A DNA stretch of 58,287 nt from Minisyncoccota bacterium (GTDB lineage: Bacteria > Patescibacteriota > Minisyncoccia > Phycocordibacterales > DATDWN01), in NCBI GenBank assembly GCA_041674105.1, contig JBAYWK010000004.1:1-58287 (forward strand), read 5' to 3'. The notes under the pieces were generated by a model that worked only from the letters and a program-made list of their open reading frames with translations, made no database searches and was not told the DNA's origin. Position numbers and translations under genes: made by a program. Each line of letters opens with the position of its first letter. The first letter of the stretch is position 1. This document shows positions 4,915 through 33,805 of this stretch, piece after piece.

Positions 4915-5005
4915 CTATGTTTCGAGAAGAGCCTTGCACAGCGCGACGGTGCTAGCAGTTCGCTAGCCCAGTAGGGCCAAATAGATTGCTTTTTGAGAAA
5001 TATAG
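4915..5005 (+). repeat. Structured intergenic element, copy A (GCGCGACGG core, AGTA-capped hairpin)
   Basis: Outer arms 4915-4932 and 4988-5005 pair with several G-U pairs on +; core at 4941-4949; gccc-AGTA-gggc at 4966-4977. Confidence 0.65.
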
Positions 5006-5023
5006 AGAGAGTTTTAATTAAAT

Positions 5024-5719
5024 CTACTCCCAACCTTTATCTCTAAGTGCCTTCCGAGCTGCCTCTTGTTCTGCGTCTTGTTTGGAGTTTCCTTCGCCTG
5101 TAGCGACTAAGTCTTTGCCTATATAAACACCAATGGTAAATTTCTTCTCATGATCTGGTCCAGATTCTTTTATTGTCTTGTATGAAGGAGTAGTACTTTC
5201 AAACTCCTGAGCTTTTTCCTGAAATAGACTTTTTGAATCTATAAAACTTTTTGCAGAAATAATATCATGTATAAGAGGAGTAAATTCTTTTTCTACAAAT
5301 TCTTTTGTTCTTTCATATCCTTGATCTATATACAAAGCTCCAATAAAAGCTTCCAAAGTATTAGCTAAAATATATTGTCTTGCTCTACCATTATCCTTAC
5401 TTTCACCTTTTGAAAGTAGGAGGAAATCGTTCATACCGAGCCTTGTGGCAATATCAGCACAAGTAGTGGCGTTGACCAAAGATGATCTATAAGCAGTCAA
5501 TTCTCCTTCTTGTTTTTCAGGATATTCTCCATATAAAAAGTCTGTAATAACAAGCTCTAAAACAGCATCCCCCAAAAATTCCAATCTTTCATTATGGGCA
5601 GTACGAAGACCTCTGTTTTCATTTATATATGAACGATGAACAAAAGCCTGCATAAGTAGGTTTTTATCCTTGAAATTTATACCTATTTTATTTTGAAATT
5701 CTGAGACTTCTATACTCAT
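5024..5719 (-). CDS. rnc: Ribonuclease III
   Basis: HNERLEFLGDAVLEL signature plus C-terminal dsRBD (GEGNSKQDAEQEAA). Confidence 0.97.
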   Translation of the reverse strand: MSIEVSEFQNKIGINFKDKNLLMQAFVHRSYINENRGLRTAHNERLEFLGDAVLELVITDFLYGEYPEKQEGELTAYRSSLVNATTCADIATRLGMNDFLLLSKGESKDNGRARQYILANTLEAFIGALYIDQGYERTKEFVEKEFTPLIHDIISAKSFIDSKSLFQEKAQEFESTTPSYKTIKESGPDHEKKFTIGVYIGKDLVATGEGNSKQDAEQEAARKALRDKGWE

Positions 5720-5771
5720 AAGCGGTACTGTAACATAAAAAAAAATAACTGGAAACCTAGAGCTTTAAATA

Positions 5772-6665
5772 CTACTTTTTTAATAAAATATTTATAGCCT
5801 TAGTAACAATAGGTAAAATATCATTATAAAAATTCAAATCCAAAATATCGCCCATCTTAAACCATTTAGCATCATCAAGTCCTCCAGAGTTTTCAAGCTT
5901 TATATCTACAAAAGGAGCTTCAGCCAAATAATAAGATACATTTTTTTTGATTTTACCTTTTTCAGGATGATGAGTTAGATATTGGTTTGAGCCAAGTTTT
6001 TCTTTTACTTTTATAGGAAGTGAGATTTCATCCTGAATGACCTTAACAACTTCTGCATCAGGATCTGTACCTTCTATATGACCTTTGGATAAAGTCCAAT
6101 GACCAAAAACATCATGTACCAAAGCCAAATACATATCTTCACCTTCTTTAGCATAAACAACCGCTCCAACCAGATATTCTATCGGAATATTCGCAGAAAT
6201 ACCGTCCTTACTTTTTTTATCCTTAGATGTCTCGTCTTTACCTGGCTCTCCAAGCTCTTTGTATACCGCACCCAGAACACCATTTACAAATTTGCTAGAA
6301 GTTTCTCCTCCAAAAGTCTTTGAAAGTTCTATAGCCTCATTTATGGCCACTTTAGGTGGCACCTGTGACCTATCCGCAAACAAAAGCTCAAAAAGTCCAA
6401 TACGTAAAATGTTCCTATCAATAACACTTATTTTATCAATAGGCCAATCTGGTGCCGCTTTCTCTATAATAAGGTCTAAATCCCTTTGTCTTTCAATAAC
6501 ACCTTTTATTAAATTCTCCATAAAAGTAGTCTCTCCTATTCCTGGAGCAAACTCTTCTGCATTGCGGATAAATATCTCCATAATCTCTGTGGAGTTTTTT
6601 TTACTAAAATCCCATTCAAATAAGGACTGTAGAACTATTGATCTGGAAAGGTGCCTTTGTGCCAT
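5772..6665 (-). CDS. nusB: Transcription antitermination factor NusB fused to a C-terminal NUDIX-like domain
   Basis: N-terminal NusB motifs (IDRNILRIGLFEL, AINEAIELSKTFGG, FVNGVLG); C-terminal GAVVY...WTLSKGHIE NUDIX-type fold. Confidence 0.9.
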   Translation of the reverse strand: MAQRHLSRSIVLQSLFEWDFSKKNSTEIMEIFIRNAEEFAPGIGETTFMENLIKGVIERQRDLDLIIEKAAPDWPIDKISVIDRNILRIGLFELLFADRSQVPPKVAINEAIELSKTFGGETSSKFVNGVLGAVYKELGEPGKDETSKDKKSKDGISANIPIEYLVGAVVYAKEGEDMYLALVHDVFGHWTLSKGHIEGTDPDAEVVKVIQDEISLPIKVKEKLGSNQYLTHHPEKGKIKKNVSYYLAEAPFVDIKLENSGGLDDAKWFKMGDILDLNFYNDILPIVTKAINILLKK

Positions 6666-6733
6666 CTCGTTTGTATACTAAACATTATACAAATAATTTT
6701 CAAAAAAAACAAAAATAATTAAAACAAAAGGGT

Positions 6734-6961
6734 CTATCGACCCTCTTTATTTTTAGATGAAGCTTTTTTAGCTTTCTTTGCTATCTTCGCAGAGAAATCT
6801 ATAACAGTCCTTCCTCTATATTGACCAGTAACAGTAGAAGCTCTATGACGCAAATGAGGAACCTTAGTGTTTGCATCTACAGTTATAGCAGGAGACTCCA
6901 ATCTGTGGTGAGATCGGGTATTTCCCCTCTGTGATCTTGTATGTCTCATTCTTACAACCAT
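6734..6961 (-). CDS. rpmF: 50S ribosomal protein L32 (cysteine-free form)
   Basis: MVVRMRHTRSQRGNTRSHH...HLRHRA...GQYRGR; located next to nusB and rnc. Confidence 0.9.
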   Translation of the reverse strand: MVVRMRHTRSQRGNTRSHHRLESPAITVDANTKVPHLRHRASTVTGQYRGRTVIDFSAKIAKKAKKASSKNKEGR

Positions 6962-7078
6962 AATGAAAGAAAGTGTACCTTATATCATAAAAAAAATCAA
7001 CTCGTAATAATTTTTTACAGAACGATACATTTCTGTTGCACCCTAGCAAACTAGACCATCTATATAAATTTTTAAAAT

Positions 7079-7196
7079 AAATCCCCATCGAGTGTATGTG
7101 TTTTCTGAAACATTGCGAGCGCGACGGCGTGAACACGAGGAATTTTTCAGTAGAAAAATATCCGTTTTCAGAAAACATATACCGAGATGGGGATTT
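7079..7196 (+). repeat. Structured intergenic element, copy B
   Basis: Arms aaatccccatc...gatggggattt and ttttctgaaa/tttcagaaaa; core GAGCGCGACGGCGTGA at 7117-7132; atttttc-AGTA-gaaaaat at 7142-7159. Confidence 0.7.
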
Positions 7197-7248
7197 AAAA
7201 AATCAAGGACAATCTAAAATTATGTTGCTGAGAAAGAGATTTTAAATA

Positions 7249-7839
7249 CTATCTTCTACAAAAACTTTTTCTATGTATAGGAGATAAACCATACTTTAAA
7301 ATAACTCCTTTGTGTATTTTTGTCCCATACCCTTTATGTCTATCAAACATATACTCGGGATACTTCTTATGCATCTTTACCATAAAATTATCTCTAGAAA
7401 CTTTGGCTATTATACTAGCCCAAGAAATAATTTTTTCTTTTTCATCTCCTTTTATTATTGTCTTCTGAAACAAAAATTCTGAAGGAGCATAAAGTCCTCC
7501 ATCTAATAAAATTTTACACTTCTTTGGATTAAGTTTCTGTTTTTTGAGACCCTCATTTATGGCTTTTTTTATAGAAAAAGAAATACCCTTTTTATCTATG
7601 ATTTTATTAGAGACACTAACTACTGAAAAATCTATACTCAACTTTTTCAAATATTTAAAGTATTTTTGACGAAGTATTGGAGTTAGTTTTTTACTATCTT
7701 TACCAAAAGCTGGTAAATTTTTGTCTTTTTTAAATCTTAAATAATCCTTAAAATCACAGGAAGCGACACAAACAGTCACAGGTCCAGCCAAAGGACCTCT
7801 ACCGACTTCGTCTATACCAACTATCTTTGAAAGAGTCAT
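7249..7839 (-). CDS. rnhB: Ribonuclease HII
   Basis: GIDEVGRGPLAGPV, DSKKL, DG, KGD...ASIIAKVSRD, HKGYGT and HRKSF motifs. Confidence 0.95.
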   Translation of the reverse strand: MTLSKIVGIDEVGRGPLAGPVTVCVASCDFKDYLRFKKDKNLPAFGKDSKKLTPILRQKYFKYLKKLSIDFSVVSVSNKIIDKKGISFSIKKAINEGLKKQKLNPKKCKILLDGGLYAPSEFLFQKTIIKGDEKEKIISWASIIAKVSRDNFMVKMHKKYPEYMFDRHKGYGTKIHKGVILKYGLSPIHRKSFCRR

Positions 7840-7847
7840 AAAAAAAA

Positions 7848-8381
7848 CTAATGATCAGTATAGAGATAAGGACTGTAGTTTTGAGGATTAGGCTTACCAT
7901 GACTACCTCGACACCACGGCCTATCATTACCAACCGTATTCTCAATCCAACCTTTAAGCTCACATCTATTTGGATTTGAATGATCCTCAAACTGTGCTAC
8001 AAGATCATATTCATTTGGATACGAAGCCGTGTTATTACCATAAGCATATGTATAACCACTGTCTTCATTCCATGGTCCAAGGCCTGTATTTTTTGGGTCT
8101 ACCGGCATCTTTTTCATATAAGGAGTGAGAGCAGTCTGCAGAGCTCCCCAATTTGTACTATAAACCCAGCCAGAAATGACAGGATATTTACCATTATCAT
8201 CATAATAAAGTTCAAGGGCAGTTCTTATTTGTCTCAAATCCTGCATCCTTTTAGCGTCACGAGCTTTTATTCTAGCAGTGTTTAGTGAAGCCAAAACGAT
8301 AGACGACAAAAGACTAATTATAGAAATAACCACGAGTAACTCTATCAAAGTAAAACCTTTTTTATCTCTAGATAAAAACAT
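7848..8381 (-). CDS. Type IV pilin / GspG-like prepilin
   Basis: Class III signal KKG/FTLIELLVVISII followed by ARDAKRMQDLRQIRTALELYY...DP. Confidence 0.92.
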   Translation of the reverse strand: MFLSRDKKGFTLIELLVVISIISLLSSIVLASLNTARIKARDAKRMQDLRQIRTALELYYDDNGKYPVISGWVYSTNWGALQTALTPYMKKMPVDPKNTGLGPWNEDSGYTYAYGNNTASYPNEYDLVAQFEDHSNPNRCELKGWIENTVGNDRPWCRGSHGKPNPQNYSPYLYTDH

Positions 8382-8523
8382 TTTTTCTAAGTATTAATTT
8401 AGACTTGTCTATATATAATAACGACTACTTAGAAATATAACAATTTTTTTATCCCCAAAATCATATTTCTCGGTAAAAAAATATGACATTTAGACCACTA
8501 AATTTTGTGTTATAATCTACAGA

Positions 8524-11500
8524 ATGGAATACAAATTCACACATCTCCACACCCATTCTCACTATTCGTTGCTAAATGCACTACCTAAAATAGAAGACTT
8601 GGTAAAGGAAGCCAAGAAAAACAAAATGACCTCCTTGGCCCTGACCGACAACGGAAACTTGTATGGCGCTATAGAATTTTACAAAGAGTGTAAAAAAGAA
8701 GATATAAAACCTATCATAGGTGTAGACGCTTATGTAGCTTATAGAAGTAGATCTGATAAACAAACCGGAGTGGACAAAGAAAGGTACAGACTAGTATTGC
8801 TAGCAAAAAATGAAATTGGGTATAAGAATCTAATAAAACTTGTAACTTACAGCCATCTAGAAGGTTTCTACTATAAGCCAAGACTAGATAAAGAACTTTT
8901 GGAAAAATATAAGGAAGGACTTATAGCGATATCACCCTCATTTTCTGGCGACATTGTAAAAGCTCTAAGTATGTCAGATGAAGAAAAAGCAAGCGGGATG
9001 ACTGACTGGTACAGACAAATATTTGGAGAAGATTTCTATATAGAAATAACTCACCATCCAGAAATAAAAGGACACCAAGAAAAAATGAAAAAACTTGTTG
9101 AATTTAGTCGCAACGAAAAAATACCAATAGTTGCAAGTCAAGATGTTTATTATATTACTCCCGAAGATAGACCGGCCAGAGAAACCCTTTTGTCCATTCA
9201 ATCAAAAGGCGACATCTCAGACAGGATAGATAGCCAAGAAGAAGACTTTTCTTTCATAAGCACAAAGCTAGCAGAAAAATATTTTAAAGATATACCAGAA
9301 GCTTTAGAAAATAACGCTAAAATAGCAGAGATGTGCAATTTAGAAATTTCTCTAGGTGTATGGATGTTTCCAGAATATATAGTAGAAAGTGGCCTGTCAT
9401 ACGACGATGAACTTCGCCGTATAACATACGAAGGAGTAGAAAAAAGAGAAGTAAAAGACACAAAAGAACTGAGAGAAAGAGTTGACTACGAACTAAAGGT
9501 TATAAAAGATAAAGGTTATTCGCCTTACTTTTTAGTGGTATCTGATCTTCTTAGATTCGCCAAAGAGAATGAAATTCTTTCAAACATCAGAGGATCTGTC
9601 TCTGGTTCAATGGTCACATATCTTTCTGGGATTACAAACATAGACCCTCTTGAATACGAAATACCTTTTGAAAGATTTCTAAATCCCGATAGGCCAAGTG
9701 CACCAGATATAGATATGGACTTTGCCGACAACAGAAGGGACGAGGTTATAGAATATACGACCAAAAAATATGGTGCTGACAAAGTTGCTCAAATAGGAAC
9801 TTTTGGAACAATGGCCGCTCGTGGATCTGTAAGAGATGTCACCAGAGCTCTAGGTTTTCCTTATAGTTTAGGAGACAGTATAGCCAAATTAATTCCTATG
9901 GGAGCCCAAGGCTTTCCTATGACCATAGACAGAGCACTAAAAGAAGTTCCTGAACTGAAAGAAAGATACAAAGCCGAGTCAGATTTAAAAAAAATAATTG
10001 ATATGGCAAAAAAAATAGAAGGTTGTGCTCGCCACATGGGAGTTCATGCTGCTGGCGTGGTCATCTCTCCTGTTCCACTTACAGATGTTGTGCCCCTCCA
10101 GTACGACCCGAAAGGTGAAAATAAAATTATAACTCAATATGATATGTACTCTGTGGATGAAAATAATGCTGGCCTTTTAAAATTTGATTTCCTTGGTCTA
10201 AAAAACCTCTCAATTATTGCTGATGCCCTAAAACTTATAAAACACACAGAAAAAGTCTTTATAGATTTAGACAAAATGCCAGTGGATGACAAGAAAACTT
10301 TTGAAATGCTAGCAAAAGGAGGAACGAGTGATTTGTTTCAATTAAACGGTGAAGGTATGACAAAACACTTGATAGAACTAAAACCATCATCTATTCACGA
10401 CATAAATGCTATGGTTGCCCTTTATCGTCCCGGACCTATGCAATTTATACCAGATTACATAGAGAGAAAACACAATCCAAAACTTATAAAATATTTAGAC
10501 CCTGCACTTGAGCCAATTCTAAAAAAAACATACGGAGTTTTGGTTTACCAAGATGATCTCCTTATGATGGCCAATAAACTGGCTGGTTATACTTGGGGAG
10601 AAGTGGATAAATTTAGAAAAGCTGTCGGTAAAAAAATTCCAGAAGAAATGGCCAAACAAAAAGAAAAATTTATCCAAGGTTGTGTTGAATATTCAAAGTG
10701 GAGTCAGAAAAAAGCTGAGGAGATTTGGGGATGGATAGAACCTTTTGCTTCCTATGGTTTCAACAAAGCTCACTCAGTTTCCTATGGCCGAGTCGCCTAC
10801 CAAACAGCCTATTTAAAAGCAAACTTCCCTGCCGAATATATGGCTTCAGTTCTAACTCACGAATCTGGAGATACAGAAAAAGTAGCGAACTCAATCTATG
10901 AATGTAAGAGAATTGGCATATCTATACTTCCTCCAGATATAAATGAATCTTTTGCAGACTTTACTGTTATAAAAAAGAAAAATGAATCTGAAAGTGACTC
11001 TATAAGATTTGGGCTAAAAACCATAAAAAATTTCGGCGAAGGTATCGCTCTTTCAATAATAAACGAGAGAAAAGAAAAAGGGCCTTTTACATCTCTTTCA
11101 GATTTTCTTAAAAGAATCAAAGATAAAAATTTAAACAAGAAATCTTTAGAATCTTTAATAAAAGCTGGAGCGATGGACTCTTTTGGTTCTAGAGCTGATT
11201 TACTCTACAATCTAGACAGACTCCTAACCTTTAACAAAGAAGAAGTAAATGCAGTGAAAGCCCAAGATTCCCTCTTTGGTATTTTGCCAGAAACTTCTGT
11301 AGATGAAATAGAATTGGAATCAGCTGGAGTAGAAGATGTGTCAAACAATCTTCTGTGGGAAAAAGAACTTCTTGGTTTGTATATTTCTGGTCACCCTTTG
11401 GATGGTTTCAAAGACAAATTGGAGAAACGAAATTTAAACATCAAAAAATTGAAGGAAACTGGTAAAGAAAAACAACCCATTGTAATAGCAGGTATAATTG

Positions 11501-11718
11501 AAGATATCAAAAAAGTAATGACCAAAAAAGGCGATCAAATGGTTTTTGTTCGTATAGCTGATATGTCAGACTCCATAGAAGCAGTGATGTTTCCGAAAAT
11601 ATTTGAAGAATTTCAAGATATAGTCGCCCTAGAAAGTTGCATCGTGGTCAAAGGAAGTTTTTCTACTAGAAACGGTGGACAAAGCATAGTGGTAGATAAA
11701 GTGAAGGAGTTGGAGTAA
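8524..11718 (+). CDS. dnaE: DNA polymerase III alpha subunit
   Basis: 1064 aa; PHP domain (HLHTHSHYSLL), RGS, PDIDMDF catalytic motif, KFDFLGL, GFNKAHS and C-terminal OB fold. Confidence 0.97.
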   Translation: MEYKFTHLHTHSHYSLLNALPKIEDLVKEAKKNKMTSLALTDNGNLYGAIEFYKECKKEDIKPIIGVDAYVAYRSRSDKQTGVDKERYRLVLLAKNEIGYKNLIKLVTYSHLEGFYYKPRLDKELLEKYKEGLIAISPSFSGDIVKALSMSDEEKASGMTDWYRQIFGEDFYIEITHHPEIKGHQEKMKKLVEFSRNEKIPIVASQDVYYITPEDRPARETLLSIQSKGDISDRIDSQEEDFSFISTKLAEKYFKDIPEALENNAKIAEMCNLEISLGVWMFPEYIVESGLSYDDELRRITYEGVEKREVKDTKELRERVDYELKVIKDKGYSPYFLVVSDLLRFAKENEILSNIRGSVSGSMVTYLSGITNIDPLEYEIPFERFLNPDRPSAPDIDMDFADNRRDEVIEYTTKKYGADKVAQIGTFGTMAARGSVRDVTRALGFPYSLGDSIAKLIPMGAQGFPMTIDRALKEVPELKERYKAESDLKKIIDMAKKIEGCARHMGVHAAGVVISPVPLTDVVPLQYDPKGENKIITQYDMYSVDENNAGLLKFDFLGLKNLSIIADALKLIKHTEKVFIDLDKMPVDDKKTFEMLAKGGTSDLFQLNGEGMTKHLIELKPSSIHDINAMVALYRPGPMQFIPDYIERKHNPKLIKYLDPALEPILKKTYGVLVYQDDLLMMANKLAGYTWGEVDKFRKAVGKKIPEEMAKQKEKFIQGCVEYSKWSQKKAEEIWGWIEPFASYGFNKAHSVSYGRVAYQTAYLKANFPAEYMASVLTHESGDTEKVANSIYECKRIGISILPPDINESFADFTVIKKKNESESDSIRFGLKTIKNFGEGIALSIINERKEKGPFTSLSDFLKRIKDKNLNKKSLESLIKAGAMDSFGSRADLLYNLDRLLTFNKEEVNAVKAQDSLFGILPETSVDEIELESAGVEDVSNNLLWEKELLGLYISGHPLDGFKDKLEKRNLNIKKLKETGKEKQPIVIAGIIEDIKKVMTKKGDQMVFVRIADMSDSIEAVMFPKIFEEFQDIVALESCIVVKGSFSTRNGGQSIVVDKVKELE

Positions 11719-11843
11719 GTTTGTTTTAAAACAATTATCAATAAAAATTAGACTTAATCTAAATTAACAAAACCCTCATCTATAATTTCACTCGATTTGA
11801 TATTTATTCCATTTCACCAAAAAACCTGATATCCTATTGTTAT

Positions 11844-13067
11844 ATGGAAAAAAACGAAATGGATAAAAATGATCATAGGATCATAGGTAAAGAACAGGAT
11901 TTGTTTATATTTTCTGATTTAGTTGGACCAGGACTTCCTTTATGGACGCCAAAAGGAAATGTACTGAGAGAAGAACTAGATAAATTTGTTTGGCAACTTA
12001 GATCAAAATATGAATATAGCAGAGTAACAATTCCTCATATAACCAAACGAGATCTCTATCAAAAGTCAGGACATTGGGACAAATTTTCTGATGAATTATT
12101 TCGCATAACTTCAAGAGAGGGAAAAGAATATGCCTTGAAACCTATGAACTGTCCTCATCATACTCAGATATTTGCAAGAAAAATCCATTCTTATAGAGAA
12201 ATGCCACAAAGATATGCAGAGACAACTATGGTTTATAGAGACGAGCAGTCTGGAGAACTCGGTGGATTGACTAGAGTATTGTCAATTACACAAGATGATT
12301 CTCATGTATTCTGTAGGACATCACAAATAAAAAGTGAGTTTCTAAATATCTGGGATATCGTTGATTCGTTCTATAAAACTTTTGGATTTACATTGACCGT
12401 AAGACTTTCTTTTAGAGACCCAAAAGAGCCAGAAAAATATCTAGGAACAAAAGAAATATGGGATACTGCAGAAAATGAATTGAGAGAAATCGCACAAGAG
12501 CGTGGAGCAAGTTTTTTTGAAGGACCAGGAGAAGCAGCTCTTTATGGACCAAAACTTGATTTTATGGCAAAAAACTCTGCGGGCAGAGAGTGGCAAGTAG
12601 CAACTATCCAACTAGATATGAACTTACCTGAAAGGTTTGATTTATCGTGTATAAATGAAAAAGGAGAAAAAGAAAGAATTGTCATGATTCATTCTGCTAT
12701 TACAGGATCCATTGAAAGAAGCGCGGCTATTTTGATAGAACATTACGAAGGTAGTTTCCCTCTATGGATTTCTCCCGTCCAAGTCAAAGTTTTACCTGTC
12801 AGAGAAAATCACAATGAATATGCCAAAAAAGTATTCCAAACTCTAAGAGATAAAGACATTAGAGTAGAAATAGACAATGAGGATGAAAATCTTGGATCAA
12901 AAGTTAGGAAAGCTAAAACAGAAAAAGTTCCTTATTGGATTGTTATTGGAGATAAGGAGATGGAAAGTGGTAAACTGGCACTAGAAGGGAGATCCGGGGA
13001 AAAATCCGAAGTGACAATAGATGAAACAATCTCAAAATTCCTAGAAGAAATAAAACTAAAGAAATAA
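11844..13067 (+). CDS. thrS: Threonyl-tRNA synthetase, short form lacking the N-terminal TGS/editing domains
   Basis: KPMNCPHH, YRDEQSGELGGLTRV, QDDSHVFC, AALYGPKLDF, TIQLD, HSAITGSIER; C-terminal anticodon-binding domain. Confidence 0.95.
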   Translation: MEKNEMDKNDHRIIGKEQDLFIFSDLVGPGLPLWTPKGNVLREELDKFVWQLRSKYEYSRVTIPHITKRDLYQKSGHWDKFSDELFRITSREGKEYALKPMNCPHHTQIFARKIHSYREMPQRYAETTMVYRDEQSGELGGLTRVLSITQDDSHVFCRTSQIKSEFLNIWDIVDSFYKTFGFTLTVRLSFRDPKEPEKYLGTKEIWDTAENELREIAQERGASFFEGPGEAALYGPKLDFMAKNSAGREWQVATIQLDMNLPERFDLSCINEKGEKERIVMIHSAITGSIERSAAILIEHYEGSFPLWISPVQVKVLPVRENHNEYAKKVFQTLRDKDIRVEIDNEDENLGSKVRKAKTEKVPYWIVIGDKEMESGKLALEGRSGEKSEVTIDETISKFLEEIKLKK

Positions 13068-13068
13068 T

Positions 13069-13302
13069 ATGTCTACAAAAAAACTTTACAAAAGCAAAAC
13101 AAACAAAGTCATATCTGGAGTAGTAGGTGGACTCGGTGAATATTTTGATACTGACCCTGTAATACTTAGACTTGGTTACTTGATTATAGTAATAGCCACA
13201 GGCGTAATTCCTGGGATATTTGCGTATATAATAGCTTCAATGATTGTCCCAGAAAAACCTCATCACAAAGAAGCTGGATTTACAGAAACTCCAAAAAACT
13301 AA
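13069..13302 (+). CDS. PspC domain membrane protein
   Basis: KKLYKSKTNKVISGVVGGLGEYFDTDPVILRL...YIIASMIVP. Confidence 0.88.
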   Translation: MSTKKLYKSKTNKVISGVVGGLGEYFDTDPVILRLGYLIIVIATGVIPGIFAYIIASMIVPEKPHHKEAGFTETPKN

Positions 13303-13335
13303 AAAAGACCGCTTGCTTTCGCAGGCGGTTTTTTT
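13303..13335. terminator. Bidirectional intrinsic terminator between convergent pspC and HIT genes
   Basis: aaaaag-accgcttgc-tttc-gcaggcggt-ttttttt. Confidence 0.75.
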
Positions 13336-13765: not shown

Positions 13766-13803
13766 AATAATTTCCTCTTAATAGATGATACTAAAAAAAA
13801 TAA

Positions 13804-15900: not shown

Positions 15901-15961
15901 ATAGACCTAATTATAACAAATCCAAAGCAAAAAAACAAAGCTTTTTTAACTAATTTTGTAT

Positions 15962-22519: not shown

Positions 22520-22585
22520 TTGATTGGTTTAAGTATAACAAAAAACAACCCCTTGTAATAAAATACAAGGCGTTGCTTAGATTAG

Positions 22586-22852: not shown

Positions 22853-22895
22853 TGCCGGTATACTTTATCAAAAGTAGGATCTTTTTGCAAGATCA

Positions 22896-24251: not shown

Positions 24252-24282
24252 AAAAAGAGAAACTTAAAACTAGTAAAGGTTT

Positions 24283-24915: not shown

Positions 24916-24952
24916 TAAGACAGTATATACATACTAAAGGAAAAAATCAAAT

Positions 24953-25924: not shown

Positions 25925-25941
25925 ACTATAAATATATCTGA

Positions 25942-26814: not shown

Positions 26815-26850
26815 AAATACATTATATAACAGTAAAAATCTTTTACAAAA

Positions 26851-26881
26851 GATAAGCCGTTGTCTTCACAACGGCTTATTC
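26851..26881 (-). terminator. Intrinsic terminator of the orphan gene
   Basis: Perfect 11-bp inverted repeat ataagccgttg/caacggcttat overlapping the stop; followed by cttttgt on minus. Confidence 0.75.
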
Positions 26882-27336
26882 GCACTAAGGACTCTTCTAT
26901 TTGGAAACCATTCTCTATTTTCCCTAACGCTCTTATCGTAACCACGAACAGTCCACAGTCCACCTTTTTCCACCAAAACTAGCAAATGATTCTCTCCTGT
27001 CAGAGGACTTGTAGATATAAAAAGATTTGATACTCCAATGAGCGATGATCTTGTAGCCAAAAGATAAAAAATATTTGCCAGCGATATAGGACCAAGATCC
27101 CCTGTTTCGCTAATAAGATCTTCTTCGTGAAATGCTTTCGTGCATTCACAAGAAAATATTAAATGTGATGGCTCTGGGAAAATAACGGCTCCCTCAAACC
27201 ATTTACAAAAATTTTGACCATGTTTGCCAAACCTTATTGGAGAAGTACTTTCAGAAAAAATGTACTTATCCACATGAAAGGGTTCAAACCTTTCTGGAGT
27301 ACTCGTTCTATAAATAGAACTTACCAAATGTGACAT
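26866..27336 (-). CDS. Orphan hypothetical protein inserted in the sugar-metabolism cluster
   Basis: 156 aa ORF with strong SD (GGAGGTG, 27341-27347), TTGACA-18-TAGTAT promoter-like site and its own terminator. Confidence 0.7.
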   Translation of the reverse strand: MSHLVSSIYRTSTPERFEPFHVDKYIFSESTSPIRFGKHGQNFCKWFEGAVIFPEPSHLIFSCECTKAFHEEDLISETGDLGPISLANIFYLLATRSSLIGVSNLFISTSPLTGENHLLVLVEKGGLWTVRGYDKSVRENREWFPNRRVLSANKPL

Positions 27337-27418
27337 ATCTCACCTCCAACTCAATACTAGACCTCCAGTACAAGAGTTGTCAACGCCTTAATTTTGAAAA
27401 TGATGTTATAATTTCTTT

Positions 27419-28402
27419 ATGACAAAAATAGATATTTTAGCCATTGGCGACATTACAACAGATGCATTTATTAGAATAAAAGACGCAACTGTAGACTGTG
27501 ATGTGGATTCAGAAAATTGTAAGCTTTGCGTAAAATTTGGAGATAAGATTCCTTATGAATCTGTAGATATAGTCAGAGCTGTTGGAAATAGTGCCAACGC
27601 ATCTGTGTCTTCTGCTAGGCTAGGACTCCACTCTGCTCTACTTGCATACATAGGAAACGATCAGAATGGAAAAGAATGTAAAGAAGAACTAGAAAGAAAC
27701 AATGTAGATACAACATATGTCCGAGTTGAGGATGGTAAAAATACAAATTACCATTATGTTCTTTGGTACGATGTAGAGAGAACAATACTGGTAAAACATG
27801 AGACTTTTTCATACAAACTTGGTGACATAGACCATCCAAAATGGATCTACCTAAGCTCTCTTGGAGAAAACTCACTACCTTACCATTTAGAAATCGCTGA
27901 CTTTATAGAAAAAAATCCTGAAACAAAACTAGCTTTTCAACCTGGGACTTTCCAAATTCGCCTTGGAGCGAAAACTTTAGAAAAAATATATAAAAATACA
28001 GAAGTTTTTTTCTGTAACGTAGAAGAAGCTCAAAAAATACTAGATGAAAAGACAAGAGACCTTCCTACCCTTCTTTCAAAAATGAAAGAGTTGGGGCCAA
28101 AAATTATTTGTATTACAGATGGTATAAATGGTGCCTACACTTTTGATGGAAATAAGAGACTTTTTGTTCCTATATACCCTCAAGAAGCCTTTGAAAGGAC
28201 AGGTGCTGGAGATGCTTTCGCCTCCACATTTATTTCAGCTCTAGCAAAAGGTAAAACATTGGAGGAAGCTATGCTTTGGGGACCAATAAACTCTATGTCT
28301 GTAGTCAAAGACGTTGGCGCCCAAAGAGGCCTTTTGTCCGAAGAAAAACTACTGGACTACTTATCCAAAGCTCCAGAAGATTACAAAGTAAAAGAGATAT
28401 AA
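27419..28402 (+). CDS. PfkB-family carbohydrate kinase
   Basis: GNSANASV..ARLG N-terminal signature; ERTGAGDAFAS C-terminal signature. Confidence 0.92.
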   Translation: MTKIDILAIGDITTDAFIRIKDATVDCDVDSENCKLCVKFGDKIPYESVDIVRAVGNSANASVSSARLGLHSALLAYIGNDQNGKECKEELERNNVDTTYVRVEDGKNTNYHYVLWYDVERTILVKHETFSYKLGDIDHPKWIYLSSLGENSLPYHLEIADFIEKNPETKLAFQPGTFQIRLGAKTLEKIYKNTEVFFCNVEEAQKILDEKTRDLPTLLSKMKELGPKIICITDGINGAYTFDGNKRLFVPIYPQEAFERTGAGDAFASTFISALAKGKTLEEAMLWGPINSMSVVKDVGAQRGLLSEEKLLDYLSKAPEDYKVKEI

Positions 28403-28483
28403 AAAAAGAGACCACTTTTGGTAGTCTCTCATGTTCACCTCCTTTCTTGGTGGACCTTTTTACAGCTGATCAGGCTGACTGGG

Positions 28484-29170
28484 CTATTCGCCGAGCAATT
28501 GTTCGCGGAGATGGCGTACGAGATCAGTGCCTACTTGATTGTTAACCGCAAACGGCAACATGAGGTTCAACAGACAGAGCGAGACTTCACGAGCATCTTC
28601 CTCCGGCAACTTTTTGATGCCGGCGACAACTGTCTCGAGATCGCCCTGTTGTGTGCCGTTGAGTAAAGCAGACTCGGCAGAACCCTTCAGTTGGACGCCG
28701 ACTTGAGCCAGAACTTCTTTCAGCTCATTAACAGACTTCCGACCAAAGTTCTTGGTCCGAAGCAGGTCCATTTCGCTGACTCCGGACAACTGACTCACGT
28801 GAGTGAGGCCGGCATTCCGCAAACAGATGAGTGTTCTGACGGAAAGACCTAGATCTTCGAGAGTGAGGCCGCTAACCCCATTCTTTCTCTTTTCTGTAAT
28901 CTTTTGTTGACCTTCCCACTGCTCGAGCCGCGAGATAGCGACCTTGAGTTCCTGATGCCTGCGAGATTGGATGTGGTCATCCACCTCCGGAACAGGATCT
29001 CCGCCGACTGCCGTCAGATCGATACCGAACATCTGTTGGACGGCATGAGTCTGTCTTGTGGGCGACGGCGCGTCCTTCCTGCCGGTAAACCAGAGTTGCT
29101 GCGGCACGGTTTGGAAATACTTCTCAAACCGCACTTTCAAGTCTGCGAACTGTGCTTCGTTGATTCTCAT
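28484..29170 (-). CDS. High-GC orphan protein containing an RNA polymerase alpha C-terminal domain (start moved to ATG 29170)
   Basis: LEDLGLSVRTLICLRNAGL...EMDLLRTKNFGRKSVNELKEVL matches the alpha-CTD fold; no alpha-NTD; GGGAG SD precedes ATG 29170. Confidence 0.8.
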   Translation of the reverse strand: MRINEAQFADLKVRFEKYFQTVPQQLWFTGRKDAPSPTRQTHAVQQMFGIDLTAVGGDPVPEVDDHIQSRRHQELKVAISRLEQWEGQQKITEKRKNGVSGLTLEDLGLSVRTLICLRNAGLTHVSQLSGVSEMDLLRTKNFGRKSVNELKEVLAQVGVQLKGSAESALLNGTQQGDLETVVAGIKKLPEEDAREVSLCLLNLMLPFAVNNQVGTDLVRHLREQLLGE

Positions 29171-29292
29171 ATTAATCTCCCAATGAACTGAAATTTTGGA
29201 ATTACTCCCACCAAGATATTCAAACCTTGAAAACCTCAGTGGGAGCCCAAAAATAGCCATATTTATGGCCAAATTCTTAGTTTTCTATATAT

Positions 29293-29321
29293 ATTATACA
29301 CCTAAATGTATAAAAAGTCAA
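29293..29321 (-). promoter_or_regulatory. Sigma70-type promoter for the alpha-CTD orphan
   Basis: TTGACT-N17-TATAAT on minus. Confidence 0.75.
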
Positions 29322-29327
29322 TAGATT

Positions 29328-30320
29328 TTATTTCCTCTCGACTACCCTCTTTACTGCCTCCAATATATGAGACTCGCCCATTTCGTAGTGTTCCAGAAGT
29401 TCTTCGGGTTTTCCACTTTGTCCAAACTGGTTTTTAACTCCAATAAATTCAATAGGCGTTGGTTGTGTTTTTGCCAAAAATTCTGAAACTGCTCCGCCTA
29501 ATCCCCCAGTTATTTGATGTTCTTCTACTGTAACCAAGGCTCCTGCTTCTTTTGCAAGTTCCAAAACTGCTTTTTCATCAAGAGGTTTTATTGTTGAAAT
29601 ATTTAAAACTTTTACATTTATTTTTTCTTTGGAAAGTTTTTCGGCAACTTTCAAAGCTTTATAAACCAAAGCACCTGTGGCTATTATTCCCACTTCAGCT
29701 TTTAGATCTTTTCCAAAAAGAATTTGCCCCTTTCCAACCTCAAATGGCGTTTCCTTTGTGGTTATGACCGGAGTTTTTTCTCTTGCCAAACGAAGATAAA
29801 CAGGTTTACCTAAATCTGCACAAGCTATTGTAGCTTTTCTAGCTTCTATGTGGTCACAAGGAGAAATGACAATCATATTTGGTATAACACGAGTAATAGC
29901 AATATCTTCTATAGCCTGATGCGTTCCTCCGTCTGGTCCGACAGAAACTCCGGCATGAGACCCAACAATAATAACAGCGCGGTCGTTGTAGCAAATAGTT
30001 GTTCGTATTTGTTCCCAATTTCTTCCAGGAGAAAACATTGCATAGCTAGAGATGAAAGGTATTTTGCCCATAGCAGACATTCCAGAAGCCACAGAAGCCA
30101 AGTTTTGTTCGGCTACACCCATTTCTACAAATCTTTCTGGAAATTTATTTTTGAAAAGATGCATCTGAGTTGACTCTGTAAGGTCTGCGCAAAGTCCGAC
30201 GACTTGTGAATTTTTCTCCCCCAACTCCAAAAGTCCCTGCCCAAAACCCTTTCGGATAGGAACTTGTTCTACATCTTTTTCAAATATCTTTGGATTTAAT
30301 TTTTGATTTGGATTTAGCAT
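29328..30320 (-). CDS. Transketolase, C-terminal subunit
   Basis: ADLTEST, EMGVAEQN, GPDGGTHQA, PVYLRLAR, TVEEH. Confidence 0.93.
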   Translation of the reverse strand: MLNPNQKLNPKIFEKDVEQVPIRKGFGQGLLELGEKNSQVVGLCADLTESTQMHLFKNKFPERFVEMGVAEQNLASVASGMSAMGKIPFISSYAMFSPGRNWEQIRTTICYNDRAVIIVGSHAGVSVGPDGGTHQAIEDIAITRVIPNMIVISPCDHIEARKATIACADLGKPVYLRLAREKTPVITTKETPFEVGKGQILFGKDLKAEVGIIATGALVYKALKVAEKLSKEKINVKVLNISTIKPLDEKAVLELAKEAGALVTVEEHQITGGLGGAVSEFLAKTQPTPIEFIGVKNQFGQSGKPEELLEHYEMGESHILEAVKRVVERK

Positions 30321-30324
30321 AGTT

Positions 30325-31224
30325 TTATTCGCTTTCTGAAGTTATTTGTCCACCAAGCGTGCGCAATTCACGCAAAGCTATCTCTGCCTGCTCATCTTTT
30401 GGTGGCTCGCCTGCAATCTCTGTTCCCGGAGGATTCCCGTGCCATTTGTAATCTCTCTCCATATAAGAAACTCCTTTACCAGGAATAGTTCTAGCAATAA
30501 TTACACTCGGACCATCAAAAACAGCTTGAGCTCTACCAATAGCAGCAACTATTTCAGCAAAATTATGACCATCTATTTCTTCGGTATGCCAACCAAAACT
30601 TTCAAACTTATGAGAAACGGATTCAAGTGGCATTATGTCTTCTGTATATCCGTCTATTTGAATATTATTTCTATCCACTATAACAATGAGATTCCCTAGT
30701 TTCTCTTTATTAGCAAGCATCATAGCTTCCCAATTCTGCCCTTCATTTAATTCACCGTCACCCATAAGACAATAAAAAAATCTATCAGAAGAAGGACCTC
30801 TATCCATTCTGTCTGCTATAGTCATTCCTACGGCTTGAGAAAGTCCAGAGCCAAGTGGCCCAGATGAATTTTCTAAAGCAGGTAAAAACTCTCTATGTGG
30901 ATGTCCTTGTAGGCGAGAGCCGAATTTTCTCAGAGTTAAAAGTTCTTCCACTGGAAAATAACCAGAGTGTGCCATTGTAGCGTAGAGTACAGGAGCTATA
31001 TGACCATTTGAAAGTATTAGTCTATCTCTCTCCTCCCAATTAGGGTCCTGTGGTTTATGACGAAGTATATAAAAATAGAGAGTAGCAAAAATATCTGCCA
31101 TGCCCAAAGGACCAGCAGAATGACCAGATCCGGCAGAGACAAGCATTTCTATAATAGAAACTCTAATATCATTTGCCTTCTTTTCTAAAAATTTTATTTT
31201 TTCGTCTGTGAGATTAGTAACCAT
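30325..31224 (-). CDS. Transketolase, N-terminal (TPP-binding) subunit
   Basis: GSGHSAG, RDRLILSNGH, LQGHP, GDGELNEG..N TPP motif, GKGVSYME..WHG. Confidence 0.93.
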   Translation of the reverse strand: MVTNLTDEKIKFLEKKANDIRVSIIEMLVSAGSGHSAGPLGMADIFATLYFYILRHKPQDPNWEERDRLILSNGHIAPVLYATMAHSGYFPVEELLTLRKFGSRLQGHPHREFLPALENSSGPLGSGLSQAVGMTIADRMDRGPSSDRFFYCLMGDGELNEGQNWEAMMLANKEKLGNLIVIVDRNNIQIDGYTEDIMPLESVSHKFESFGWHTEEIDGHNFAEIVAAIGRAQAVFDGPSVIIARTIPGKGVSYMERDYKWHGNPPGTEIAGEPPKDEQAEIALRELRTLGGQITSESE

Positions 31225-31894
31225 TGATAGATTTTAAATGATTAAACACATCACCCGGACTTTCTGAATGTAAAATAGCGGAACCTGAAATAAGTTTTGT
31301 CGCTCCAGCTAAAACAAGTTCTTCTGCAGTATCTTCGTTTACACCAATATCAATTCCAATTATACGCTCTGGATAAAGATTGTGCAATTCTTTTATCATC
31401 TCTATCGCTCTTTCCTCTAGCTCTACTCCGTGTTTTCCTAAACTATCTGAACCCATACACTGGATGAAATCTATTTCTCCAATATAAAGTTCCAAAAGTT
31501 TTATGTCTGTCTTTGGTTTTATAGCCAAACCCAAAGCTACTTCATATGTTCTGCATTGTTCAATTATTTTTTCCATATCTGTAACAGCTTCTATATGAAC
31601 AATGACCGCAGAAATACCTGTATGAATCCAATTTTCTAAAACCTCTTCTGGATTTTCTACCATCAAATGAAGTTCTATAGAAATTTTTTCCCATCTAGGC
31701 CAACCTGTATTTTCCGATTTTAATTCTTCAAAGAAGTCAGAATCTTTTCCATTGTATGGCCAAGTAGAAACTCCTGTAAATTTTCCGTCCGAAATATCTA
31801 CCTGCACAACCTTTGCAAAACTAGAAACTAGGTCAATTTCTTCTTCCAGTTGTTTTTTTGAATATGGGATTATAGCTGGTATTACTTCTGTCAT
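31214..31894 (-). CDS. rpe: Ribulose-phosphate 3-epimerase
   Basis: VQVDISDGKF, ELHLMV, VHIE, IDIGVN, LISGSAI; operonic with tkt and rpiB. Confidence 0.85.
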   Translation of the reverse strand: MTEVIPAIIPYSKKQLEEEIDLVSSFAKVVQVDISDGKFTGVSTWPYNGKDSDFFEELKSENTGWPRWEKISIELHLMVENPEEVLENWIHTGISAVIVHIEAVTDMEKIIEQCRTYEVALGLAIKPKTDIKLLELYIGEIDFIQCMGSDSLGKHGVELEERAIEMIKELHNLYPERIIGIDIGVNEDTAEELVLAGATKLISGSAILHSESPGDVFNHLKSINGY

Positions 31895-31902
31895 ATTTTA
31901 TT

Positions 31903-32346
31903 TTAAAGATTATCTATTTTTTCAATTCTCCTTTTATGTCTTTCTTCTTCAGAAAAAGGAGTTTCAAGCCAAAGCAAGACGGCGTCTTTAGCTTCTGTGT
32001 TTGTGATAAAATGAGCACCTAAAGATAAAACATTTGAGTCGTTGTGCTCTCTAGATAAAGTCACAATATGCTTTGTTCCTCCATAAAAAACTGCACAACG
32101 GACACCAAGAAATCTATTTGAAACCATTGCTTCACCTTGCCCCGACCAACCCAAAACAATACCTTTTGCATCACTTTCCTCTGAAACAGCCGAGGCTACT
32201 TTTGAAACATGGTCTGGATAATCATCATCTTGATCATATTCTTTCGGACCACAATCAAAAACATTGTATCCTTTTTCAGTAAGGAACTTCACGAGCTCTC
32301 TTTTCATTTCAAAACCAGCGTGATCAGAGGCGATATAGATTCTCAT
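31903..32346 (-). CDS. rpiB: Ribose-5-phosphate isomerase B (start moved to ATG 32346)
   Basis: MRIYIASDHAG, DYPD, SGQGEAMVSNR, REHNDSNVL, RHKRRI. Confidence 0.92.
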   Translation of the reverse strand: MRIYIASDHAGFEMKRELVKFLTEKGYNVFDCGPKEYDQDDDYPDHVSKVASAVSEESDAKGIVLGWSGQGEAMVSNRFLGVRCAVFYGGTKHIVTLSREHNDSNVLSLGAHFITNTEAKDAVLLWLETPFSEEERHKRRIEKIDNL

Positions 32347-32450
32347 ATAAATATTATAACATTTAGATACAAAAATAGTATAAAAAGTGTCAAGGGGCAC
32401 CCTTGACACTTTAGAGGCAGCCCTCCTCAGAGATTTGAAAATAGCTTGAT

Positions 32451-32559
32451 GGATTTTTGATTGAGTTCAAGGCGAGATGAGAAAATATGAGAAGCCTTAC
32501 ACCTAGTAAGGTGACGAGGATTTTTGATATTCCAACACAGAAATCAGTCAAAAAGACCC
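32451..32559 (+). repeat. Structured intergenic element, copy D (divergent)
   Basis: Arms tttttgattgagttc (32454-32468) and gaaatcagtcaaaaa (32540-32554); cacct-AGTA-aggtg at 32500-32513; ACGAGGATTTTT resembles ACGAGGAATTTTT of copy B. Confidence 0.55.
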
Positions 32560-32564
32560 GAGCG

Positions 32565-33593
32565 TTATAAAAAGGATGCTGTTTTGACTACATGCTCCAT
32601 TAGAGAGTGTGTATACCCCATTTCGTTATCGTACCAAGCACAGACTTTTACCAAATTTCCATCTACAACCCTTGTTAACCCTAAGTCGGCAATAGATGCA
32701 TACTTACTACCCAGAATATCAGAAGAAACAATAGGATCCTCTGTAACAGAGAAGATTTTTGACCAATTTTCTGTACCAGCAGCATCTTTTAGTATTTTAT
32801 TGACTTCCTCAACCGTTGTATTTCTCTTGGCAATAAAAGTTACATCCACAATAGAACCAGCAATAACAGGCACTCTTATAGCAATACCATCAAACTTCCC
32901 TTCTAGGTCTGTGATAACCTTTGTAGTGGCTATGGCTGCTCCTGTAGTAGTAGGAACAATATTTTGTGCAGCAGCTCTACCTTCTTTAAAATCTTTCTTA
33001 TTTGGACCATCTACAATACTTTGACTTGCTGTATACCCGTGAACAGTGTTTAGAATAGCCTTTTCTATACCTATAGACATATTTAATATCTGGATTAGAG
33101 GACTTCCAGCGTTTGTTGTACAAGAAGCATTAGAAGTAACTGTTTTTTCTTTCAAAGAATCACAGTTTATACCCATAAGAATTGTGCCCTCACCTGTAGA
33201 AGTTGGATCATCTTTTGCTGGTGCAGTTATAACCACTTTCTTAGCACCAGCCTGTAAATGAACTTTAGCTTTTTCAAAAGTAGTGAAAACTCCAGTAGAC
33301 TCTACGACAACATCTATGTCCAAATCTTTCCAAGGGAGACTTGTTGGATCTTTTTCAGAAAGAAATTTAAAACTCTCTCCATCTGCTGTAATAGTTTTTC
33401 CATCCTCAGAAACTTCTACTTTAGAAAAAGCTTGTCCATAAACAGTGTCATATTTTAAAAGATAAGCAATGTTTTTTACATCACCCAAGTCATTTATGGC
33501 TACAATATCAACATCATCTCTTTTGTGTGCCAATCTGAAAAAAGCCCTGCCGATTCTACCTCCTCCATTTATAGCTACTTTTATTTTTTTCAT
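32565..33593 (-). CDS. gap: Glyceraldehyde-3-phosphate dehydrogenase (type I)
   Basis: VAINGGGRIGR, SNASCTTN active site, VHGYTASQ, WYDNEMGY. Confidence 0.97.
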   Translation of the reverse strand: MKKIKVAINGGGRIGRAFFRLAHKRDDVDIVAINDLGDVKNIAYLLKYDTVYGQAFSKVEVSEDGKTITADGESFKFLSEKDPTSLPWKDLDIDVVVESTGVFTTFEKAKVHLQAGAKKVVITAPAKDDPTSTGEGTILMGINCDSLKEKTVTSNASCTTNAGSPLIQILNMSIGIEKAILNTVHGYTASQSIVDGPNKKDFKEGRAAAQNIVPTTTGAAIATTKVITDLEGKFDGIAIRVPVIAGSIVDVTFIAKRNTTVEEVNKILKDAAGTENWSKIFSVTEDPIVSSDILGSKYASIADLGLTRVVDGNLVKVCAWYDNEMGYTHSLMEHVVKTASFL

Positions 33594-33687
33594 ATTTCCT
33601 GTATTTTAGAATTAATATATGAATTATAACTATTTTCTACCAATAAAACAAAAAAATAACCCAACCATACCCCGTTGAAGTTGCCTA

Positions 33688-33805
33688 GGATCTCTTTCTC
33701 AGCAGTACAATTTTAGGGCACACCATAAGTCTTGCTAGACTTTGGCTCAATCTCACGCCGTCGCGCTCTCCAAAGTCCCCAAAATCATATTGCTGAGGCG
33801 AGACC
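33688..33805 (-). repeat. Structured intergenic element, copy C
   Basis: Minus strand carries the same 16-mer GAGCGCGACGGCGTGA (33753-33768) as copy B; long G-U-rich outer stem; aagtct-AGCA-agactt inner hairpin. Confidence 0.7.

Follow-up and report, generated by a model that had tools for sequence, protein, structure and literature searches.

A probable selfish palindromic repeat family with a conserved three-way-junction cap in Paceibacteria

The stretch of DNA analysed here, hereafter the window, comprises 58,287 nt (58 kb) of the genome of a Minisyncoccota bacterium from a landfill metagenome (contig JBAYWK010000004.1, assembly GCA_041674105.1); it is AT-rich (~35% GC), and its minus strand carries most of the genes. 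Within Patescibacteria, NusB homologues assign it to Paceibacteria/Minisyncoccia. At three places a strongly folding palindromic element lies between housekeeping genes: E1 at 4915-5005 (+) between rnc and smc, E2 at 7078-7197 (+) between rnhB and rpmF, the latter (6734-6949) falling below the size of the open reading frame (ORF) list, and E3 at 33687-33807 (-) between the gene for a class II ribonucleotide reductase (RNR) and gap. An earlier reading of the letters alone (the sequence-only reading) had placed such elements between co-oriented housekeeping genes, which holds for E1, E2 and E3; all three are intergenic, and a model search of the window finds no copy inside a gene. Altogether, our results support a reading in which E1, E2 and E3 are probably copies of a non-autonomous, selfish palindromic repeat family that is spread across Paceibacteria (Patescibacteria, or Candidate Phyla Radiation, CPR) and resembles the Rickettsia palindromic elements (RPEs). 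The family is apparently undescribed so far, and a literature search returned no paper linking Patescibacteria or CPR with palindromic, repetitive extragenic palindromic (REP) or MITE (miniature inverted-repeat transposable element) sequences. We describe here the family, its structure and strand specificity, its copy number, its turnover and the landing sites in which it is tolerated.

The sequence-only reading had put forward four structured elements as one family. Three of them (4915-5005, 7079-7196 and 33688-33805) do belong together, with covariance-model scores of 58-70 bits, and the fourth, at 32451-32559 (+) and here called X, does not: it gives no match at E<=10 and is taken up separately below. 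The short core string GCGCGACGG occurs exactly at 4941-4949 (+), 7119-7127 (+) and 33758-33766 (-), and at up to one mismatch it has four matches in the window against 0.46 expected, a number reached by none of 100 shuffles. The exact 16-mer GAGCGCGACGGCGTGA, present at 7117-7132 (+) and 33753-33768 (-), links the elements at 7079-7196 and 33688-33805 (E2 and E3), in which it stands in opposite orientations. A structural scan, which asked for a GACG loop closed by a stem of 4 bp or more and followed within 60 nt by an AGYA-capped hairpin, selects exactly E1, E2 and E3 in the window, and shuffled windows yield 0.04. Consistently, covariance model R1, trained on 14 copies and run on the window with filters off, scores E2 at 69.8, E3 at 64.1 and E1 at 58.2-58.3 bits, the next match in the window reaching 10.9 bits. 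All three elements fold far better than shuffled sequences (z-scores of -3.3 for E1 and -8.9 for E2), and on the strand picked in the sequence-only reading the fold energy is -34.3 kcal/mol for 4905-5015 around E1 versus -24.5 kcal/mol on the complement, and -53.8 versus -39.8 kcal/mol for 33680-33815 around E3.

E1 and E2 correspond to elements A and B of the sequence-only reading, and E3 is the third core-bearing copy. E1 (model match 4921-5002) lies antisense to its genes, 22 nt past the rnc stop codon. Its outer stem, CUAUGUUUC-GA-GAAGAGC / GCUUUUU-GA-GAAAUAUAG, includes a tandem G.A loop and closes on hairpin P2 at 4940-4953 (AGCGC-GACG-GUGCU), an additional small hairpin at 4954-4964 and hairpin P3 at 4966-4977 (GCCC-AGUA-GGGC); a basal loop, CGUUGAC / AGAGAG, probably lengthens the element to ~4904-5016. 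E2 (model match 7100-7180) is antisense to rnhB, whose stop codon is at 7249, and to rpmF, and it combines an outer stem of ~40 bp, with a CGAG/CGAG tandem G.A loop, with P2 at 7119-7130 (GCGC-GACG-GCGU) and P3 at 7139-7163 (GGA-AUUUUUC-AGUA-GAAAAAU-A-UCC). E3 (model match 33704-33786) is in the sense orientation, between the RNR stop codon at 33935 and the gap start at 33593; its outer stem has many G-U pairs, P2 lies at 33755-33766 (GCGC-GACG-GCGU) and P3 at 33722-33746 (GCC-AAAGUCU-AGCA-AGACUU-AU-GGU). The stems of the inner AGYA-capped hairpins differ completely between copies, as had been observed from the letters. Two further traces accompany these copies: beside E2, at 7214-7240 (+), stands the remnant 3' arm of an older E3-like copy, with a 15-nt identity to the 3' arm of E3 (three overlapping 13-mers) and a wider likeness judged by eye, and at 8452-8466 (-), in a divergent intergenic region, a fragment identical to part of the 5' arm of E3 (ATATGATTTTGGGGA) is probably a decayed copy.

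Across the family the elements measure ~90-135 nt in full folds and pairwise alignments (greedy stem tracing, which halts at internal loops, gives a median of 86 nt, range 58-135), and they share one architecture, a long outer stem, P1, of variable sequence that is capped by a conserved three-way junction. In consensus, P2 consists of yUUGC (P2a), (G)(C)A, a 4-bp P2b, the GACG loop, the P2b return, GA and GCAG (P2a return), and contains a G.A internal loop, while P3 consists of GCA (P3a), a 7-bp P3b, the AGCA loop, the P3b return, a bulged A and UGC, followed by GUG and the return strand of P1. P2a occurs as UUGC/GCAG, UUC/GAA, UCGC/GCGG, UCC/GGA and AGC/GCU, and P3a as GCA/UGC, GGA/UCC, GCG/CGC and GCC/GGU. 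The P2 loop is chiefly GACG (also GGCG, GACUG and GGGUA) and the P3 loop chiefly AGCA (also AGUA, AACA and ACCA). P1 is frequently interrupted by 5'-CGAG/CGAG-3' tandem G.A loops, and a subset of copies including E1 carries a basal internal loop, CGUUGA / GAGAAA. Similarity between copies is limited to a core of 55-60 nt, the arms being mostly unrelated.

Every helix of this structure covaries. The copies in the seed alignment were picked by a scan that presupposed the inner 4 bp of both P2 and P3, and alignments made with the model lean towards the model; in an independent metagenome set, where the stems were no part of the selection except through detection by the model, P2 is 98.6% and P3 99.2% paired, double changes occur in 21 of 24 pairs, and the covariation score is 0.66, versus 0.21 for shuffled sequences and at most 0.17 when the partners are slid. 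The proposal that one specific strand folds is likewise upheld, with 226 G-U pairs on the sense strand versus 115 on the antisense strand and the sense strand giving the better fold in 62 of 68 copies (p=2e-11). Three structural candidates were rejected. Kissing loops between P2 and P3, suggested by the combination of GGGUA and ACCA in two loci (L122 and L187; L-numbers are labels of loci from relatives and metagenomes), are ruled out by the combinations GGGUA with AGCA and GGGCA with AGUA; an alternative pairing of 5' GCGCA with 3' UGCGU in place of P3a exists in one subfamily only and fails in the GCGA/GGA subfamily, P3a covarying in all; and the P1 arms, considered as guides, match only other copies or remnants.

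A structure of this kind could also belong to a structured noncoding RNA family, either small RNA genes or cis-regulatory leaders such as riboswitches, in which the junction would be the binding site for a ligand or protein and the transcript itself the functional product. The strong covariation in P2, P3 and P1, the preference for one strand through G-U pairs, and the conserved tandem G.A loops, bulged A and near-invariant loop letters are all in agreement with this explanation, as is the presence of the core in an aquifer metatranscriptome. It receives no help from the catalogued families: a scan of the window with Rfam 15 gives only two tRNAs at the gathering score, and at E<=10 the four flagged sites give nothing credible; tRNAs and noise are all that either threshold yields. 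Further points against it come from the genomic distribution of the copies.

Copies are numerous. Relatives' syntenic regions were collected via the fusion protein NusB-NUDIX, and metagenome contigs were scanned with the junction letters only, TTGCGCA N11-13 GAGCAGAGCA. The structural scan of 83 relatives' loci gave 12 raw matches, 11 of them convincing; across 1.35 Mb of sequence from the relatives and the window the covariance model made 32 matches, including 23 further confident matches in relatives (E<1e-5), and 45 more among metagenome loci picked by the junction sequence alone. Together these amount to ~70 further copies in relatives and metagenomes, and building a covariance model, the check proposed from the letters, has returned both additional members and strong covariation. 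Two queries proved misleading in viral contigs: the 16-mer alone gave >120 chance matches, and the junction pattern gave 2 matches, neither supported by the model.

In the source metagenome, core k-mers reach 22-43x single-copy depth, a depth that may pool related organisms of the same sample. The E3 core stands at a depth of 208 versus 9 in its flanks (run X1) and is found with several different flanks, and the E2 core reaches up to 367 versus 8.5 (run X1), with contigs that break inside the element and continue into many different flanks; E1 is essentially single-copy there. Beyond this sample, the E2 core is matched over 73 nt in many long contigs from wastewater metagenomes (runs X3-X5), where the flanks are unrelated. 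Local density can be high, with 2-4 copies per 5.5-20 kb in L127, L134, L155, L198 and L239, among them four copies in 12 kb (L134), three in 300 nt (L198) and three in 5.5 kb (L239). In L127, two copies 7.6 kb apart are ~95% identical across the whole hairpin with unrelated flanks, and compensatory pairs are among their few differences. Since cores recur far more often than arms, one could suppose that a mobile core had entered terminator hairpins already in place; in the L127 and L235/L285 pairs whole hairpins have been copied, so that such an insertion, although conceivable, is not needed.

Sites turn over between close relatives. The comparison of occupied and empty sites that had been proposed in the sequence-only reading reveals orthologous sites that are empty, differently occupied or remnant-bearing, and they are not conserved even at 95-96% protein identity. 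At the E1 site, the copy is kept in L123 (96% NusB identity), with compensatory changes in the orthologue, and a different 1-kb segment takes its place in L204 and L205. In the window, the rnhB-rpmF gap is filled by E2. In L123 and L204 an E3-like copy occupies it, in L122 a copy in the sense orientation, in L121 another family of hairpins and in L205 one arm only of that family; the remnant at 7214-7240 in the window complements the 5' arm of the E3-like copy of L123 and L204. Logan contigs L123 (1-62) and L204 (1-62) both end at the same point inside the E3-like copy, which indicates that the repeat breaks short-read assemblies of these genomes. The segment that replaces E1 in the rnc-smc gap (L204 2162-3256, L205 6561-7986) contains a 191-residue ORF without an informative domain and, at L204 2930-3210, a GC-rich, apparently structured stretch of ~280 nt that may be an unannotated RNA gene.

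Most intergenic copies start 3-40 nt past a stop codon, whichever way they point, and they are over-represented between convergent genes. This placement raises the possibility that they are mainly host-serving modules at transcript 3' ends, acting as bidirectional intrinsic terminators, mRNA stabilisers or RNase III sites in the manner of SPRITE or REP sequences, in which case they would be kept as operon punctuation and their spread would be secondary. In agreement with this idea, both strands form the long P1 stem, U-runs come after some copies when these are read on the strand of the upstream gene (E2 on the minus strand, for example), and the rnhB-rpmF gap has been refilled by different hairpins in different lineages. 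The idea leaves unexplained, however, both the conserved asymmetric junction cap and the copies within ORFs described next, and a U-run after the hairpin is not consistently there, the 12 nt downstream containing a mean of 3.1 U versus a mean of 3.6 A upstream; a search around the copies for a promoter or terminator of their own found nothing consistent. Moreover, a position past the stop codon is also expected from purifying selection on any selfish insert, and relatives fare well with empty sites, e.g. L204 and L205 at the E1 site. We therefore regard a primary role in punctuating operons as unlikely.

In relatives and metagenome contigs the element also enters genes. In the first scans, 10 of 69 strong copies lie within long open frames, stop-free and in both orientations, and distinct in-frame insertions number at least 11 (13 copies). 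Pfam domains are split by or flank the element in Dus, PGM/PMM, two Aminotran_5 proteins (cysteine desulfurase/IscS-like), TruB, CysRS and a GT1 glycosyltransferase; in HrcA, Pfam matches the downstream side only. The copy in PGM/PMM lies between domains I and II, and the one in CysRS between the catalytic and DALR domains. Reading through the element adds 28-31 residues (58 in L295), and in Dus the peptide ...SARPSRPAQG... arises by antisense translation of the J1/2-P2-J2/3 core. Of the cores, 90% keep one antisense frame free of stops and 73% keep one sense frame free, versus 36% for shuffled cores.

Dus offers a clear series (genes at L239 1772-2827, L295 3020-4183 and L328/L329/L330 10001-11047, with L331 empty; proteins P0121-P0240). 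The linker after the GNPWLF motif has 15 residues without an insert versus 43-46 when occupied. The insert DNA scores 75.5 bits in L328 and 63 bits in L329, which belong to different subfamilies, that of L329 being the E1 subfamily; L295 carries the element in the opposite orientation, and in L330 the insert is another palindrome, one that escapes the model. Among the 120 closest homologues, ~85 have an insert and ~29 the bare 15-residue linker, and the inserts, of 15-35 residues, fall into several peptide families that correspond to several palindromic element families in both orientations. Judged from these sequences, the Dus linker is an insertion hot spot in Paceibacteria. In an AlphaFold model of an occupied Dus, the insert is predicted to be a loop with a pLDDT (predicted local distance difference test) below 50 between the confident barrel and helical domains.

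These distributions argue against a structured noncoding RNA, and the alternative of an RNA class that the sequence-only reading had entertained is accordingly disfavoured. Copies point at random with respect to the flanking genes, E1 and E2 being antisense to all their neighbours; the neighbours are varied, without a consistent gene association, and the copies mostly lie downstream of stop codons; sites are lost or replaced between orthologues at 95-96% protein identity; core depth is many times (22-43x) that of single-copy DNA; coding sequences have been invaded at least 11 times, in both orientations; and neither a conserved promoter or terminator at the hairpin nor an Rfam match accompanies the structure. 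A dedicated noncoding RNA or riboswitch role is unlikely, and of RNA as the product that explains the family as a whole we would say that it is very improbable.

The combination of many copies, turnover between close relatives and in-frame insertion into genes instead points to selfish DNA of the RPE type. The suggestion of a REP- or MITE-like non-autonomous element, made from the letters, is supported in so far as the copies are multiple, turn over and insert in frame, and does not extend to REPs, which a ~90-135 nt three-way junction does not resemble. In our model, the conserved junction cap would be the recognition module for a mobilising activity that acts in trans, presumably on the folded single strand and more likely on single-stranded DNA (ssDNA) than on RNA; ssDNA is favoured because E1 and E2 are antisense to every neighbour and genic copies occur in both orientations. 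The structure would persist since only foldable copies propagate, and an inserted copy would be a passenger, whose by-products may be a long hairpin at the 3' end of a transcript (which could serve as terminator, as stabiliser or as RNase III site) or a disordered loop on the surface of a protein. Copies accumulate at sites that tolerate them, past stop codons and, in relatives, in inter-domain linkers.

As the sequence-only reading suggested, the elements could be substrates of Y1 HUH enzymes, either REPs mobilised by a REP-associated tyrosine transposase (RAYT) or a palindrome-associated element derived from IS200/IS605, with P2 and P3 as the enzyme-bound ssDNA hairpins. Strand-specific folding that tolerates G-T and sheared G.A pairs is what ssDNA hairpins do, conserved short hairpins stand beside conserved single-stranded letters, terminal inverted repeats are not conserved between copies, and no obvious target-site duplication is seen. 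Against this, the ~50 window ORFs and the relatives' ORFs that were checked contain no Y1_Tnp/RAYT gene. REPs have a conserved 5' GTAG-type tetranucleotide and often occur in bacterial interspersed mosaic element (BIME) clusters; they are simple hairpins of 20-40 nt with that 5' GTAG, not three-way junctions of ~90-135 nt. The ends of IS200/IS605 elements are not joined by a long closing stem, and the window copies are mixed in orientation (+,+,-) within one replichore, as judged by a monotonic GC skew. We consider mobilisation of this specific type quite unlikely.

Several observations weigh against the selfish-repeat reading itself. Neither a transposase nor an HUH, Y1, reverse transcriptase or other mobiliser gene was found among the ~50 window ORFs and the few relatives' loci scanned, and target-site duplications and exact boundaries are not evident at near-identical pairs or at empty and occupied Dus sites, where the flanks are AT-rich or too diverged. 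That the outer arms differ and the core is conserved is the reverse of classical MITEs with terminal inverted repeats (TIRs), and elaborate conserved non-Watson-Crick loops and G-U pairs are also expected of a functional RNA. A single ancient insertion, maintained there or converted in situ, could account for the occupation of the same Dus site in many lineages, instead of repeated insertion. Because the detection of genic copies needs an open frame, gene-disrupting copies would be missed there and counted as intergenic. As for expression, none of the RNA sequencing runs searched contained the window; in the aquifer metatranscriptome the core has a depth of 42-69 versus ~2 in the flanks, in contigs that carry no strand information, and since this ratio equals the expectation from copy number it neither supports nor excludes an RNA role.

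It is also conceivable, and we offer it with little confidence, that the junction cap is the active module of a mobile element that encodes and needs no protein of its own, propagated for instance by copying driven by RNA or ssDNA structure such as hairpin-primed template switching, as a reverse-transcribed RNA akin to a short interspersed nuclear element (SINE) or as a small ribozyme, or that the peptides added to dozens of essential enzymes are selected functional modules in CPR bacteria. In either case the family would count as a novel class of elements that shape genomes, in the bacteria whose genomes are the most reduced.

Element X, the fourth element of the sequence-only reading, lies between gap and rpiB, with its core AAGCC-UUACACCUAGUAA-GGUGAC at 32492-32515. 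It lacks the GACG hairpin and remains without a family-model match even with filters off. The 12-mer ACGAGGAWTTTT by which X matches E2 has 4 matches versus 1.16 expected, a number reached by 2 of 100 shuffles and not significant, and the match falls on the other side of the AGUA hairpin. Cores of the X type, (G/A)AGCC-hairpin-GGUGA(C/G) with A/U-rich arms, occur at L124 14709 (-) and at L122 10999 (-), 11987 (-) and 18999 (+), and this common core identifies X as a copy of a second, separate repeat family.

Other repeats were met along the way. A MITE-like element of ~125 nt with perfect 23-bp terminal inverted repeats (TCCTGTAGTAGAAAATACCATTG) lies just upstream of smc at L123 ~2340-2470 and L121 11618-12059, and is absent from the window, where the empty site is at ~4841-4850. 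A third family of hairpin repeats has GCGAAG-type loops, e.g. GAGCGAAGCGAG, which contains the GCGAAGC mini-hairpin motif, and is found at L121 9478-9710, L205 4515-4670 and L122 10894-11129 and 11824-12185; L205 has one arm only where L121 has the whole element, implying partial deletion or replacement. A strand-asymmetric 18-bp hairpin within the RNR gene at 34757-34833 (-), with z-scores of -3.8 on the gene strand and -0.3 on the other, was considered as a genic insertion and rejected because the residues it encodes align with the RTPR enzyme of L. leichmannii; it may be an mRNA structure or chance.

Three features of the window stand apart from the repeats. At 5772-6665 (-), NusB carries a C-terminal NUDIX domain, a fusion conserved in thousands of Paceibacteria homologues. 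The gene at 36995-37327 (-) encodes a 110-residue RNA-binding protein with an RRM_1 domain, for which no link to the repeats was found. Within a 1-kb stretch without an ORF of at least 80 residues, at 45800-46350, three tandem genes of ~30-40 codons encode hydrophobic peptides, every one with a TATAAT-like box, a GGAGG ribosome-binding site and a terminator hairpin to itself.

Patescibacteria are presumed to have streamlined genomes of ~1 Mb that contain little repetitive DNA. If the selfish-repeat reading is right, a selfish repeat in active turnover is present in the Paceibacteria at least, one that fragments assemblies, fills intergenic gaps and writes extra peptide loops into essential enzymes, including Dus, CysRS, TruB and cysteine desulfurases. 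After the RPEs it would be the second case, and an independent one, in which selfish DNA has entered the protein-coding genes of host-dependent bacteria whose genomes are reduced, and it would suggest that the phenomenon belongs with that lifestyle. In practice, the covariance model would aid the annotation of CPR genomes, pick out inserted segments in proteins and yield markers with which strains could be typed, and the conserved junction offers a handle for finding the mobilising activity.

How do these elements compare with known systems? Integron attC sites have terminal R''/R' core sites (RYYYAAC ... GTTRRRY), form the 3' ends of mobile cassettes and adjoin an integrase. They were rejected as a match, since inspection revealed no terminal boxes, the flanks are syntenic housekeeping genes and the window contains no integrase. 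SPRITE is, like the present elements, a dispersed repeat of similar size (~105 nt), and its structure, together with its place downstream of genes, points to a hairpin at transcript 3' ends, but with its U-tract and defined orientation it imitates an intrinsic terminator, whereas here both orientations occur, a junction cap is present and a consistent U-run is not.

With REP/BIME-RAYT systems and MITEs such as Correia (CREE), ERIC and RUP, the family shares being made of small non-autonomous palindromes in intergenic 3' regions that become RNA hairpins when transcribed, and the repeated refilling or targeting of the same sites (PMC3184786, PMC10969869). REPs, however, are tied to a RAYT gene and much shorter, and the present elements have no conserved GTAG foot; MITEs derive from insertion sequences and keep conserved TIRs and target-site duplications, whereas here the arms are mostly unrelated and no such features were found. 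Closer in architecture is bcr1 of the Bacillus cereus group, described as a repeat of ~155 bp with a closing stem and two stem-loops, compensatory changes and a distribution that varies between close strains (Okstad 2004 and Klevan 2007, reviewed in PMC3184786). Both the closing stem with two stem-loops kept by compensatory changes and the variable distribution among relatives are seen here as well. bcr1 differs in having 5-bp direct repeats, no target duplication being resolved here, in its demonstrated transcription, and in copies that are alike along their full length rather than in the core only.

The closest likeness in behaviour is to RPE-1 to RPE-10, described as interspersed palindromes of 100-150 bp, in several families, abundant in both intergenic and protein-coding DNA (Ogata et al. 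2000, summarised in PMC1779305 and PMC10969869). On that description, the similarities extend to length, a high number of copies, a host-dependent bacterium whose genome is reduced and AT-rich, insertions that keep the frame of unrelated housekeeping genes and add a peptide that is compatible with the fold, several co-existing families, lineage-specific proliferation and the lack of a known transposase. The likeness is one of behaviour. The hosts here are Patescibacteria, not Rickettsiales, and we file the family as one that works like an RPE and not as a member. For RPEs themselves, to our knowledge, the mobilising activity has never been identified. What the present family adds to RPE-like repeats is another phylum, an architecture in which a three-way-junction cap is conserved and the arms vary, and a single hot-spot linker, that of Dus, into which such elements have been received.

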